Below are positions 12,001 through 18,000 of a DNA stretch of 64,000 nt, one piece after another. Numbering within the stretch: the stretch's first letter is position 1; each line of letters begins with the position of its first letter. This stretch comes from a virus. Lineage: Duplodnaviria > Heunggongvirae > Uroviricota > Caudoviricetes. The stretch is taken from the IMG/VR virus record IMGVR_UViG_646311923_000012; one strand, given 5' to 3'. The position numbers are program-made.

Positions 12001-15000
12001 AGCGGTTCGAATACACCTCCCCCATAAGCTCCCACAGCTTCCAGGCCGTTTCCGTTGCTGATAAATCCGTTTTCACGTTCCCACTGTTCGCGTGCTGCCC
12101 GGATTTCCTGAACTGCCCGTGATGCCGTGCCACCTGATGCTGCATGGCTTACCCCCTTGCTGACTGGTTTTACCTGTGCCCTGACGTGCTGCACGTGGCG
12201 GGCAAATTTCTGCTCCCACTGAACCTGCGTGAAAACCTTCCCCTCCGCCATCCAGTAATCCCGGAATGCGGCAAGCTCAGCAGGTGTAAATTCCGGCTCA
12301 GGCAGAGCCATACCCCACACTGCTGCCCGTTGTCGAAAATCCGGCGACGGCTGCCAGACAGTAGTCATCGAAAATTTCCCGATCGGTTCGCTCAGGCCGT
12401 CCAGGTATTCAGGTTCGGCTGTCTGCAACGGCGCACCATGCGACTCACTGGTCGGAATACTCTCGCGTTCACGCACGTTATGTGTGGGGTTTAATTCTTT
12501 TAGATCTGTATCTTTATTAGTTGCTTTTGTGTTTGCGTCATGTTCAAACACAACACCAACATTTGTTTGAACACCTGTTAAATCTCTCTCTTGTTTTGTT
12601 TGAACATATGCTTCCTTTCTGCTTCTTCTGGCCTGAACAGATGCTTTTCCGGCGGCTGATTTTTTGGTCAATTTTTCCCTGACTGATGCCAGATCTTCCT
12701 CAATCCGAAGATGCACCCATTCATCGCTGTTATCGCAAAAAAACTCCCGCAAGGATGGTTCCACATCAGCCCATCGCTCGTTAGTCAGACGGGAAATTTT
12801 TGCCAGCCTGTTTTTAGGTATTGGTTTCCCTGTTTGCCAGTAATTGAACATCAGCAACAAATACGCACCGTGCTCCTCTGCGGACAAATGCATGGTGTCA
12901 GCCAGGTAATCAGCTATGTACAGTTGCATGTATGGTAATGCGGCCATAATTGCCTCATCTTGTGACGAACCATCCTCTGGTGATATTCTGTGATTCCCCA
13001 ATCAACAGAATCAGCAGGGGTCTGGCATAAATATCAATGCACCACAACAGACTCGCCGGATGACCCGCCGTCGCTGAAATACGCTTTCCGGTAAACTGCC
13101 TGGACTGCATCATCATGCGCATCAATTGCCGTGCTCAACGCTTCCTGGGCCGCCAGTAATGCACGGCGCTCAACAGTGTCAAAAATACTGAGGTGATAAC
13201 GCAGTTCACGCGGAAGAACAGTCAGGATAGCTGGAATTAGTGCCTGAATTTTTTCAACAGCATCAGGCGTATCCTTTTCAAGCCAGCGAAAAATATTTTG
13301 TATGTTCAATCCAATACCCTCTGTCGTAGAGGTGTCATGCATTGGTGGATAAGTCATTTCAAGCTCAAAATATGCTGTCGCTATATCATCAGCGATTTTT
13401 TTGCGCCCTACCCTCGGATAAAGCAGCCACGCATTCATCGCCATGCGGATGTGCTCATGCTTGATTTTCATGAATCAACTCCCGCCGCTGCTTGTGCGTT
13501 AGCCTGATACTCAACAGGTAAACCATCGGTTGGATTAGGGTATTTATCAGGGCGCAATTCATGCGGAGTTACTCCCCAGTCAAGCGCCTCACATGCTGGT
13601 ATAACCTCCTCCGCTGGCACTCGTTTTTTAAACCACCCACTTATGGTTTGCGGTGTTTTACCAAGACGACGCCCTAATTCTGATTGGCTCATTATTGACA
13701 GGATTTTCACTTGAGTACTTTTTTGCATGTTTCCCTCCGAACTTTACGATGACACCGATAATTACAAATTTAAATTTAAATTTCAACTTCTATTTGTAAT
13801 GCCACTTATCAATTTTTTCTGTAGGATCGCGGAACTAGTTTACGAGGGGTGGTGATGATCTTTGTAAAACGCCTTCAGCAGGTGTTGCAGGAATTGAATA
13901 TAAACCAGTCAGAGCTGGGAAGACGTCTTGGTGTAAAACCCCAATCCGTGCAAGGTTGGTTGAAAGGCGTGATGCCAAGAATGGATAAACTGGAAAAATT
14001 AGCAGAGCTCTCACAACATCCCGTCCATTGGTTCTTTATGGAAGAAGAAACTCTCGGCGATAAAATGGCTGTATCCAGTAATGACAACCAACCGCAACTT
14101 ACAGAACAACAACGAAAAATCATATCGCTTTTAGATGAGTTACCTCAAAGCGACGCAGAGCAGATCATTCGTGATATGGAGCAAAAACGCGATTTCTATA
14201 AACGGAAACTTGAAGAGTTACTGCGGCAGAAAAACAAAACTGCCTGATGCATTCCTTTTCTGGAACGAGCATCAGGCAAATGACTAGCAGATTTTATAAT
14301 CCAACCAGGCTTTCCAGGGGGATACCAAATTGATTATGAAGACGGCGAATCATTGGTAACGTAAGGCTTCTGGTACCATTCAACACCTCATAAACCCGAT
14401 TTTTTTTCCCAATTGCGGGTTCCAAATCTTTCACAGTCAGCCCCTGCTGTTCCATGCGAAATCTTATAGCTTCAATTGGGGATGGTGGCTCAATGGGATA
14501 ATGTTTTTTTTCATATTCCTCTATTAGCAAACACATCACCTCAAAAAAATCCCCCTCAGGCGTGTCAATTTCGGGCTCATTGTCGAACATGGGTTCAACA
14601 GCACGCAACGCGGCTTCATAATCTTGCTCTGTACGAATAGGTTTGATGTTCATGCTTACTCCAGTTCGATGGTATCAGCATCAATAGCATCGTATTCCTT
14701 GTGGTTTCCGATGAATTTAACAAATACCCATCCTCGCTGATACGCAATTGCAACAATTAAACGGTAATGATTACCTTTTATGTTGAATACCACGCGCCGG
14801 TTTTTCAATATACTGGCCGTTCGGTATTGTGCCTTAATGTCTGCTGGGCTTTTCCAGTCAGCTTTTGCCGCCTCATCCACCCATGCCCTTAGCGGTTGTT
14901 CTGCATCAGGATTCTCCGCCCAAAAATCCCTGAGTGTTTTAACTGAGATAATCTTCATAACTGTATAGTAGTCCCATTTTGGGACTGATGCAACAGCCCG

Positions 15001-18000
15001 CAATTACAAATTTAATAATAAACATGTTGACCAGTTAAATTTTAATTTGTAAATTGTATCCATAAACCCACCCCGCCCCACAGAACGCAGGGCAATACTT
15101 CGAGTTACCCGGCAGTGGTCAGGGGTTAAGTAGCCAGCCTGAGGCGTATGAACATGACGGCGGGGATTACGTTTAACTATGCAGCAGGTTTTTTGTTCCG
15201 CTACCCCGGCGTTAAGGGGAAACAGAGGATTTCTCAGTGGGCGAAGTCAAACATCAGAATGGAAGGCATCCAGGGATCAGCAAAGAAACAGCGATGGCGC
15301 TTTATATTGATATCAGCGCCATTGCCGGACAGGTAAGAATTATCAGAGCGGTAACTAAGCGGTATGCGCCTTTACTTCAGAAAGTCTCTGGTGAGTGCAC
15401 CGAAGATATTGTCAACGATTTCGTCATCAAACTGCGAGGACTCATCTTCAGTTACAAGGTGACCACAATTTTTGCAGATGGCTCCCGCGAAACTGTCAGA
15501 GCCATGCGGTTTAAAGGATGTGTCAAAGACTTCGCCACCACATTCTGGGCAAGAAAACTTGATTGTATTCATAACCAATTTCCTCTCGAGTAACAGACCC
15601 CTCAGAGGATACCACCTCGCCTGACGTGGTTAAAAGCAGGCAGCGCTAACCACAAGGAGCCGACATGCAGAAACGAGAACCCGTCATCATCGCGCCAGAC
15701 TATACCGATGATGAACTTTATGAGTGGATGCACCAGAAAATTAAGGCAGCGCAGGACCTGAAATGGGCCAATGAAGCCAGGGCTAAGCAGGCTGAAAATC
15801 TGTCCGCTCTGGAGCAGGATATCACCAATCTGGAAAAAGCAGCGGCATTAAGCATTGCCAGAATGATTACATACCCGCGTTAATAGCTAACCAACGAAGC
15901 TAAGGTTGGTAATTAAGGAGTTCTCCACGGGTGAGGTGGAGTGCGTGCGCCGGACACGGGTGAGCATCCGGCACTGACAGTTTACTGAAAGGATATTTCC
16001 CTGAAAAGTCAGACCATAACGCGAAAGCGCACGGCGAGGTAGCTGGTTCATAGATAGCCTGTCGTTAAATTTTCGTCGACCGTGCGCTTCCGGTTGTGGC
16101 AATCCGCGAAATGGCGCGGCGGTAAGTATGGCGGGGTTATTCCTTCCCCAGTTGAGGACACCGGGTTGTCAGGTTGACCATACGCTTAAGTGACAACCCC
16201 GCTGCAACGCCCTCTGTTATCAATTTTCTGGTGACGTTTGGCGGTATCAGTTTTACTCCGTGGCTGCTCTGCCGCCCTTTTTAAAGTGAATTTTGTGATG
16301 CGGTGAATGCGGCTCAGCGCACGCGGAACAGTTAAAACCAAAAACAGTGTTATGGGTGGATTCTCTGTATCCGGCGTTAATTGTTAACTGGTTAACGTCA
16401 CCTGGAGGCACCAGGCACCGCATCACAAAATTCATTGTTGAGGACGCGATAATGGAAACGTTATTACCAAACGTTAATACGTCTGAAGGTTGTTTTGATA
16501 TTGGTGTTCTGCTCAGTAACCGGGAGTTTACTGAAGATGCCATTAATATGAGGAAATATGAGCCTTATCTGCTCAATGATAATTCCATACTTTCCCGAAT
16601 TGCTCTTCTTGAACTTGGTATTTTCGGAGAACGTCAATAACTTCAGCATTTGCACTGATGATGACGGTTTTTCTTATAACGGGTGAATCACAGAATGTGA
16701 TTACCGGAATTTATGCCAGTAAAGAATCCTGCCTCCAGGCAAGAGACGAGCAAAAAATTTCTGGTGAATGCCTCCCGGTAAAAAAAGTATCGCTGTACCT
16801 GAATAACGAAACACCGGCTGGATAACCCTCCAGCCATATTAACACCATACCAACGGATTAAAAATGCCAGCAATGGCAGGGATTCGTTCACCCTGAAATC
16901 TGTAATGAGGTAAAACAAAATGAGTAAAGTCTTTATTTGCGCCGCCATTCCGGACGAACAGGCAATAAAGGAAGAAGGTGCAGTCGCTGTAGCCACTGCC
17001 ATTGAAGCCGGTGATGAACGTCGCGCCCGCGCAAAATTTCACTGGCAATTCCTGGAACATTATCCGGCTGCTCAGGACTGCGCTTATAAATTTCTTGTTT
17101 GCGAGGATAAACCCGGTATTCCCCGCCCTGCCCTCGATTCCTGGGATGCTGAATATATGCAGGAAAACCGCTGGGATGAGGAGTCTGCTTCCTTTGTCCC
17201 GGTTGAGACTGAATCAGATCCGATAAACGTCACTTTTGACAAGCTGGCCCCTGAAGTACAGAACGCTGTCATGGTTAAGTTCGACACATGTGAAAACATC
17301 ACCGTTGATATGGTGATTAGCGCGCAGGAACTGTTGCAGGAAGACATGGCAACATTCGACGGACATATCGTTGAAGCGTTGATGAAAATGCCTGAAATTA
17401 ACGCTATGTATCCGGAACGCAAACTGTTCGCTATCGGATGGGTTAAACACAAATGTAATCCGGGTGCCAAATGGCCCGAAATTCAGGCTGAATTACGTAA
17501 CTGGAAAAAACGGCAGGACGCAGAGCGCAAAGAGACTGGAAAATACACGTCTGTTGTTGATCTCGCCAGCGCCAGAGTCAATCAACAGAACACTGAAAAC
17601 TCAGCAGGAAAAATCAACCCAGTCACTGCCGCCATTTGTCGCGAATACAAGCAGACATGGAAAACGCTGGATGAAGAACTGGCCTACGCTCTCTGGCCTG
17701 GTGATGTGGATGCCGGAAACATTGACGGCAGCATCCATCGCTGGGCAAAAAATGAAGTTATCGACAACGACCGCGAAGACTGGAAGCGTATCTCGGCATC
17801 AATGCGCAAACAGCCTGATGCCCTTCGCTACGACCGCCAGACTATTTTTGGCCTTGTCCGTGAACGTCCGATCGACATTCACAAAGACCCTGTGGCACTG
17901 AACAAATACATTACTGAATACCTGACTACAAAGGGCGTGTTTGAAGATGAAGGAACAAATCAGAGCGCAACTGATACTCTCTCGTCGCCAGTACCAGAAA

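Follow-up and report, generated by a model that had tools for sequence, protein, structure and literature searches.

Does a toxin-antitoxin (TA) module that lies between a prophage repressor gene and the promoter PL answer to the repressor, or does it regulate itself? The question arises from a higBA locus in the IMG/VR virus record IMGVR_UViG_646311923_000012, which was analyzed as one window of 64,000 nucleotides (64 kb). Based on gene order and domain matches across the 64 kb, the prophage in the window is a lambdoid prophage of the Qin/Rac/CP-933P type. A preliminary description of this DNA had placed higB and higA on the minus strand between a DicA-like repressor gene and a PL-like promoter, in the slot where lambda carries rexAB and in the opposite orientation, and had proposed that palindromes of the repressor type control them. 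The placement was confirmed: Pfam matches, alignments to the solved complex 5IFG and the RefSeq annotation agree on the genes, same-flank relatives hold either paaR2-paaA2-parE2 or nothing in the slot, and the PL candidate corresponds in position to PL933P, a promoter validated by experiment, with a widely shared leader starting just after the candidate. The proposed control was not supported. Because the predicted OL operator sites flank or overlap PL and not the higB core promoter, higBA is most likely autonomous. It is probably a HigA-autoregulated type II TA insert (a 'moron') in the rexAB-equivalent slot; its own promoter would drive it in the lysogen, and it would serve in addiction, abortive-infection exclusion or both.

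The identity of the module was established from both proteins. HigB matched the Pfam family HigB_toxin (PF09907) with E=4.8e-33 and 113.7 bits (cut-off 27). HigB and HigA align full-length to the E. coli HigB-HigA complex 5IFG, the match to its HigA spanning residues 6-112, and HigB aligns also to 5YCL. The gene order is toxin-first, with 2 nt between the higB stop and the higA ATG, and the RefSeq annotation of the identical stretch in strain E2865 has both genes. HigA is 119 amino acids (aa) long in the prophage, Salmonella and most plasmid homologues as well (122 aa in pNE92-2). The ratio of nonsynonymous to synonymous substitution rates (dN/dS) was 0.02-0.04 for higA and 0.02-0.08 for higB, which indicates strong purifying selection on both genes. 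Judged by its toxin domain and the downstream antitoxin with an Xre-type helix-turn-helix (HTH), the module belongs to the HigB/HigA (PF09907 / YgjN-YgjM type) class of type II TA systems. A longer higB open reading frame (ORF) of 115 aa from TTG 15003 was rejected, since the extension crosses a hypervariable linker and the operator OL-a, a stretch in which one variant lacks 1 nt; the RefSeq start of higB is 14958. No paper was found that mentions the RefSeq accessions of HigB, HigA or the repressor.

The module has a control region of its own, which the preliminary description overlooked. A sigma-70-like promoter, PhigB, is predicted upstream of higB, with six nucleotides between its -10 element and the higB ATG (Table 1). 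The perfect palindrome AGTCCCAnnnTGGGACT, with seven-base arms and a three-base centre, fills the PhigB spacer, overlaps the first base of the -10 element and is likely the HigA operator. It is unique within the window. A copy with one mismatch at 24054 is within chance expectation, and a link of HigA to other phage promoters was unsupported. No Shine-Dalgarno sequence was found before the higB ATG, whose A is the predicted +1, and the mRNA would be leaderless. The higA ATG is preceded by GGAG, 5 nt upstream and within the end of higB. Such a combination would favour antitoxin over toxin synthesis. At the other end, a hairpin overlapping the repressor stop codon is likely the intrinsic terminator of higBA. 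It folds with -26.1 kcal/mol (z=-3.87) on the minus strand and -23.5 kcal/mol (z=-3.0) on the plus strand, where no T-run follows directly, and it is kept in eight variants. No further ORF was found in the higBA operon, in which higA is followed by the terminator and the repressor gene.

The case for PhigB comes from its conservation and not from its consensus score. Three E. coli plasmid homologues share 73-81% DNA identity with the module, and HigB and HigA are 82-94% identical in the two that were compared. The block TTnnnT-(A)GTCC(C/T)AnnnTGGGAC-TA(C/T)TAT is common to the window and all three. Further upstream the plasmids have unrelated sequence without the TTACAAAT motif of the prophage operators, and upstream of their -35 element, roughly where the prophage has OL-a, lies a second HigA-type palindrome. 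Thirteen distinct prophage versions, taken from E. coli genomes and IMG/VR contigs, were also compared. Invariant among them were the TTG of the PhigB -35 element, the TAnnAT of the -10 element (positions 1, 2, 5 and 6) and the TCCC..GGGAC arms, and the remaining PhigB positions vary freely. OL-a, the PL -35 element and OL-b are each conserved separately. The 8-nt linker between the PhigB -35 element and OL-a is the most variable stretch, and one contig has a 1-nt deletion in it. This pattern is the one expected of two independent functional blocks with a neutral linker between them.

Some further observations concern the plasmid-borne relatives. The nearest higBA relatives, with 91-94% protein identity, lie on plasmids of ~93-97 kb (locus L004, 2494-3159; L038, 2494-3621; L039, 2492-3454). 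The genes around the locus are common to the L038 and L039 plasmids, the first of which also carries phage tail and baseplate genes. Some of these plasmids carry a different RelE/ParE-HigA pair in place of higB, together with an orphan higA that is intact or truncated. One orphan-higA plasmid coexists with this prophage in the O45:H2 strain FWSEC0003, so a plasmid HigA could cross-neutralise the prophage toxin.

The second functional block consists of the prophage operators. The 64 kb contain five copies of the motif TTACAAAT, four of which make up two inverted pairs, 13762-13769/13792-13799 and 15004-15011/15045-15052. The 14-mer AATTACAAATTTAA is exact at 13760 and 15002. When up to three mismatches were allowed, it had 15 matches against 5.7 expected, a count reached by none of 100 shuffles, and eight of the matches fall in the OR and OL patches. 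The sites were read as 18-bp pseudo-palindromes with one strong half-site each, and the four TTACAAAT-type sites are the predicted OR and OL operators of the prophage. OR overlaps divergent PR and PRM candidates and is conserved in 12 distinct variants. The centres of the paired sites are 20 bp apart at OR (about two helical turns) and 31 bp apart at OL (about three), which would permit cooperative binding on one DNA face.

The preliminary description had been partly right about these repeats. It had seen the inverted repeat of OR recur at OL, and the inverted TTACAAAT pairs are indeed present at both; the right OL arm, however, is ATTTGTAAA (15045-15053) and not ATTTGTAAT. This arm matches the OR arm at eight of nine positions and reads ATTTGTAG in most variants. 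The description had also held that operators bracket higBA. OR and OL do enclose the repressor gene plus higBA, as they do cI-rexAB in lambda, but higBA alone is not bracketed, OR being upstream of the repressor gene. Finally, it had placed the repeat upstream of higB and overlapping PL. OL does overlap PL, whereas at the higB promoter there is another palindrome, AGTCCCATTTTGGGACT (14970-14986).

The higB-PL interval measures 104 bp. In reporter assays, PL933P was repressed ~100-fold by PaaR2 and by YdaS (PMC8630535, section 9), and Qin dicBp was induced 22-fold upon dicA deletion (PMC10448788). Since these analogues of PL are under repressor control, control of PL suffices to explain the existence of both OL-a and OL-b. 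The immunity-specific DNA stops a few bases past the PL -10 element, and the sequence from 15065 on is common to thousands of E. coli prophages of other immunity types, that of CP-933P among them.

Several side observations concern this leader of ~160 nt. It has >90% identity across prophages of many immunity types, and the mosaic boundary all but coincides with the predicted PL +1. A wider query matched 4,309 of 5,426 E. coli genomes, most of which share only the stretch from 15065 rightwards. Folding of the leader was no better than that of shuffles (z=+0.97) and no Rfam match was found, and no RNA element is claimed for it; its role may be nut-like or translational.

Table 1. Features of the immunity region and other prophage elements, with positions in the 64-kb window
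Feature	Position	Strand	Remarks
parD (second type II TA)	6170-6427	+	Pfam ParD_antitoxin
parE (second type II TA)	6433-6732	+	Pfam ParE_toxin
YdaT-family (cII-like) gene	13034-13471	minus	
cro-like regulator, YdaS family	13468-13728	minus	Pfam YdaS_toxin and HTH_3; heads rightward early operon
Predicted OR	13762-13799		Two abutting 18-bp pseudo-palindromic sites, 13762-13779 and 13782-13799; outer half-sites TTACAAAT / ATTTGTAA
DicA-like prophage repressor	13855-14247	+	130 aa; N-terminal HTH (Pfam HTH_3), without S24 peptidase domain
Hairpin, likely higBA terminator	14241-14278	minus	Overlaps repressor stop codon; followed on minus strand by GTTTTGTTTTTCT (T-rich); RNA fold
higA antitoxin	14294-14653	minus	119 aa; C-terminal Xre-type HTH (HTH_3), residues 63-115
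higB toxin	14656-14958	minus	100 aa; YgjN/PF09907-type, by family a ribosome-dependent mRNA interferase; HKEYD motif retained
Predicted PhigB, sigma-70-like	14965-14993	minus	-35 TTGCAT (14993-14988), 17-nt spacer, -10 TACTAT (14970-14965)
Predicted OL-a, repressor-type operator	15004-15021		Between the divergent -35 elements: 10 nt upstream of PhigB -35, 5 nt upstream of PL -35
Predicted PL (dicBp analogue)	15027-15055	+	TTGACC-17-TAAATT; predicted +1 near 15062
Predicted OL-b, repressor-type operator	15035-15052		Covers PL spacer and -10; almost invariant in 13 variants and in Salmonella
PL transcript leader	15065-15222	+	Common to many Qin/Rac-type prophages; right end of immunity-specific cassette
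Zinc-ribbon protein gene	15372-15578	minus	68 aa, CxxC...CxxC; NCBIfam ECs_2282 family
DicF small RNA	16226-16277	+	Rfam, 75 bits
dicB	16452-16640	+	
Integrase ORF	19658-20677	+	339 aa; Phage_integrase
Gene with EspF-type proline-rich repeats	21811-22563	+	250 aa

Based on this layout, PhigB would make a bicistronic mRNA in the lysogen that is leaderless for higB, and higA would be translated from its own GGAG, giving antitoxin excess. HigA or the HigA-HigB complex would autorepress at the palindrome, independently of the prophage repressor. The repressor, bound to OL-a and OL-b, would silence PL as the promoter of the ydfC-DicF-dicB operon. When labile HigA is no longer replenished, HigB would be released and would cleave ribosome-bound mRNA. 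The pay-off would most likely be addiction to the immunity cassette or the prophage, abortive-infection exclusion of other phages, or both. A lysogeny-linked exclusion or addiction function, as the preliminary description suggested, would be reasonable because TA systems in this slot have been published to act in addiction (paaA2-parE2, PMC8630535) and in phage exclusion (HigBAC, bioRxiv 10.1101/2024.02.24.581848).

The distribution of the module was analyzed with respect to its neighbours. Any part of 13735-15062 was matched by 147 of 5,426 complete E. coli genomes; all 147 cover at least 80% of it and all have higBA. The repressor was present at 23 IMG/VR loci, and in every one of them higA, higB and OL/PL accompany it in unchanged order. 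The carrier genomes belong mostly to non-O157 Shiga-toxin-producing lineages (O103, O111, O45 and O121). The flanking modules vary: the replication genes to one side are of the P type or the DnaC type, and the PL operon at the opposite end has either ydfA/ydfB or the ECs_2282 gene, so cro-OR-repressor-higBA-OL appears to travel as one cassette. A Salmonella prophage has the same convergent higBA, with 75% identity in the repressor, 88% in HigA and 80% in HigB, and its promoter layout and the 10-nt gap between the PhigB -35 element and the OL-a core are as in E. coli. Its repressor-higA spacer is ~100 bp longer and contains the short tandem repeat GGTCTTC in three to four copies (locus L042, 3990-4035), whereas the E. 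coli spacer is compact and holds the hairpin only.

The contents of the slot differ among relatives. Same-flank prophages of the CP-933P immunity type hold paaR2-paaA2-parE2, co-oriented with the repressor, and the PaaA2 antitoxin of the related locus matches PDB 3ZBE at 5.5e-37; other relatives hold nothing. Behind homologous repressor genes of Salmonella and Serratia come higBA, a PLD-family gene, PaaA2 or other small ORFs. Among repressor homologues with cargo other than higBA, identity to the repressor was 71% where a PLD-family gene follows, 72% where the cargo is an orphan PaaA2 and 58% where it is two small ORFs; in further cases the genes are unknown. Shiga toxin (Stx) phages of the H-19B/BP-4795 type have a HigBAC system downstream of cI, composed of a HigB homologue at 42% identity, a HigA of 218 aa and a SecB-like gene. 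These varied TA and defence contents point to the slot as a hot spot for such cargo. By its position between the repressor and OL/PL, and by the varying contents among same-flank relatives, higBA is classed as cargo of the lambdoid repressor-to-PL slot. It is not co-transcribable with the repressor from PRM or PRE, being convergent on the opposite strand.

The Stx phage records themselves deserve a remark. In the H-19B immunity-region record (AF034975, 3001-4342), the cI-N interval is unannotated, yet it encodes the HigB homologue. The colinear BP-4795 record (3001-4342) has an annotated HigB, a 218-aa HigA-like regulator and a SecB-like (PD-T4-9_C) protein. A HigBAC-type system is thus carried by Stx1/Stx2 phages.

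The absolute linkage of higBA to the repressor, together with purifying selection on both genes, is also what a purely addictive element would produce. In this explanation the TA module is functional and benefits neither phage nor host, and it persists because its deletion kills the cell and because the OR-OL interval is tightly linked. In agreement with it, ParE2 activation from paaA2-parE2 was not detectable in steady-state growth in either transcriptional state of that locus (PMC8630535); the same module nevertheless causes post-segregational killing on plasmid loss (PMC8630535). Such a selfish hitch-hiker is, however, hard to separate from the addiction branch of the autonomous insert proposed above, and genes with a proven role in defence, rexAB and HigBAC, recur in the slot (bioRxiv 10.1101/2024.02.24.581848). 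We therefore consider it possible but rather unlikely.

Control by the prophage repressor through the OL palindromes, with TA expression tracking the lysogenic state, is the explanation closest to the preliminary description. Repressor bound to OL-a would either mask an AT-rich, UP-like element or interact with RNA polymerase on PhigB, comparable to CI at OR2 acting on PRM. A number of observations weigh against full autonomy of higBA and bear on this possibility. PhigB has 7 of 12 consensus positions and was not called by a generic promoter scan; its -35 element (TTGCAT) is weak and the region from -44 to -64 is AT-rich. An upstream element or factor may thus help PhigB. The OL-a core begins 10 nt upstream of the PhigB -35 element in both the E. 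coli and the Salmonella versions, and the second HigA-type palindrome of the plasmid homologues lies at about the place of OL-a, so cross-talk with the prophage repressor is possible. The linkage of higBA to the repressor is absolute (147/147 genomes, 23/23 viral contigs), although it could merely reflect a physical proximity of 1.3 kb. Furthermore, the TA module of the related CP-933P is under the repressor PaaR2 (PMC8630535).

Against such control, OL-a does not overlap the -35 or -10 element of PhigB; the OL sites lie at PL. The core promoter and its own palindrome are conserved on plasmids without phage operators, the linker between PhigB and OL-a is hypervariable and has the 1-nt deletion in one variant, and the need to control PL fully explains the OL-a/OL-b arrangement. 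In addition, HigA has its own DNA-binding domain, unlike PaaA2. Repressor control of higBA is therefore doubtful, and it keeps a small probability because of the weak PhigB, the constant 10-nt gap and the plasmid palindrome in a similar region. OL-a-bound repressor, centred near -54 of PhigB, may modulate this promoter. It is improbable that OL-a has been co-opted as an upstream control element through which the repressor tunes the TA balance. If this were true, HigBA would be an immunity-state sensor that punishes loss or replacement of the cassette, or that arms exclusion only in lysogens.

Comparison with named systems helps to define the autonomous insert. One of the closest is paaR2-paaA2-parE2 of CP-933P / Sp12 in E. 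coli O157:H7, which belongs to the same prophage family and likewise has its TA genes between the repressor gene and PL. Their flanks also agree, with ydaS/ydaT at one end and the conserved PL leader, the ECs_2282 gene and ydfC at the opposite end. In paaR2-paaA2-parE2, the TA genes are co-oriented and co-transcribed with the repressor, the antitoxin is without a DNA-binding domain and the toxin is of the ParE type. In contrast, higBA is convergent to the repressor, its HigA has an HTH, and it has its own predicted promoter, operator and terminator. Jurenas et al. (2021) found paaA2-parE2 to be transcribed with the repressor gene and addictive, and proposed that it guards the immunity region against rearrangement (PMC8630535).

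HigBAC of lambdoid prophages (E. coli NT1F31) resembles the module in its HigB-family toxin and Xre-HTH HigA, located in a variable locus downstream of the repressor. It is reported to sit where rexAB would be and to provide defence against lambda-vir, for which the major tail protein is the trigger (bioRxiv 10.1101/2024.02.24.581848). It differs in its SecB-like chaperone, in the chaperone-addiction tail of its 218-aa HigA, both absent from the window, and in its co-orientation with cI. In PD-lambda-2, component A matches HigB (PADLOC PDLC03979, E=1.1e-40, positions 1-96 of 97) and positions 1-119 of the 402 in the component B profile match HigA (1.7e-42), which ends at residue 119. The PD-lambda-2 system found by Vassallo et al. 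(2022) comprises a protein resembling HigB, a HigA fused to a peptidase, and a third gene that defence requires (PMC9519451). The C-terminal peptidase of PD-lambda-2B and the third gene (P4 antitoxin-like) are not present in the window. Membership in either system was rejected, as the peptidase, the third gene and the chaperone are missing, and by sequence the module is a plain two-gene HigBA related to the TA cores of both. That it is a degenerate, non-functional remnant of three-gene PD-lambda-2 or HigBAC with its sensing parts lost, as the strong PADLOC matches to PD-Lambda-2_A and the first part of PD-Lambda-2_B and the HigBAC genes in the equivalent slot of H-19B/BP-4795-type phages could suggest, is highly improbable, since the 119-aa HigA has a conserved length and a dN/dS of 0.02-0.04, the stretch from higA to the terminator has no trace of a peptidase or chaperone, and the promoter and operator are conserved.

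The more distant comparisons were also informative. E. coli K-12 HigB-HigA (YgjN-YgjM; 5IFG; Christensen-Dalsgaard et al. 2010, PMC2814082) has the same Pfam family, toxin-first order, full-length alignment and HKEYD motif; it differs in its low similarity (E about 1e-7 to 1e-9), chromosomal location and 138-aa HigA. Lambda cI-rexA-rexB likewise has non-essential, lysogen-expressed cargo between the repressor gene and OL/PL, although rexAB is co-transcribed with cI and is not a TA pair, whereas the cargo here is on the opposite strand with its own predicted promoter. The dicA-dicC / dicBp region of K-12 Qin has a similar short DicA-type repressor without a cleavage site, a divergent cro-like gene and a PL analogue driving ydfC-DicF-dicB (PMC10448788). 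Qin differs in having no cargo gene and other operator sequences. The gene order of the window matches the Qin region, and the repressor-side gap is 166 bp (dicA-ydfA) in Qin versus ~815 bp here, where higA and higB occupy it on the minus strand.

The repressor was compared with the NCBIfam DicA profile (NF007257), to which positions 6-132 of 135 aligned with E=2.7e-13 and 49.9 bits, below the 101-bit cut-off. Therefore, 'DicA-like' is a fair label, but the protein is not DicA itself. A Sodalis homologue with 71% identity carries a DicA annotation. The start ATG at 13855 is retained in a variant that loses the upstream GTG. A scan of species-representative genomes with the repressor protein gave no matches.

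The remaining genes agree with the prophage type. Replication genes lie to the left of the YdaT-family gene on the minus strand, and the CP-933P YdaS, at the position equivalent to the cro-like regulator, is a demonstrated Cro analogue (PMC8630535). To the right of PL are the zinc-binding gene (minus strand), ydfC, DicF, dicB, a large exonuclease gene and the integrase gene. The zinc-ribbon gene is antisense within the PL operon, between PL and ydfC, and is replaced in related prophages by ydfA/ydfB on the plus strand. With DicF and dicB downstream of PL, derepression of PL should yield both cell-division inhibitors, as in Qin. An Rfam scan of 14200-16400 found only DicF, at gathering and permissive thresholds alike.

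Other observations on the prophage were as follows. A second type II TA pair, parD/parE, lies in the region that separates the replication genes from those of late regulation. In the window, whose nearest genomes are of the O103:H2 type (99.8%), the integrase ORF is intact; the same gene is interrupted by an IS3-family element in strain E2865 and many O111/O26-type genomes. Matching genomes label the gene with EspF-type repeats, just past the integrase, as TccP2 or EspF-repeat effector; it is a type III effector gene and lies at the prophage junction.

TA and defence genes in the repressor-to-PL slot are already known, and higBA is a further example of this arrangement. It would represent a third TA architecture for this slot in enterobacterial lambdoid prophages, the autonomous convergent two-gene HigBA, beside the two known before, the repressor-dependent paaA2-parE2 and the chaperone-gated HigBAC. 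The present evidence implies no new principle. The cassette would provide a convenient natural experiment in which to ask whether TA systems at this position protect immunity cassettes from being replaced by recombination or keep out other phages.

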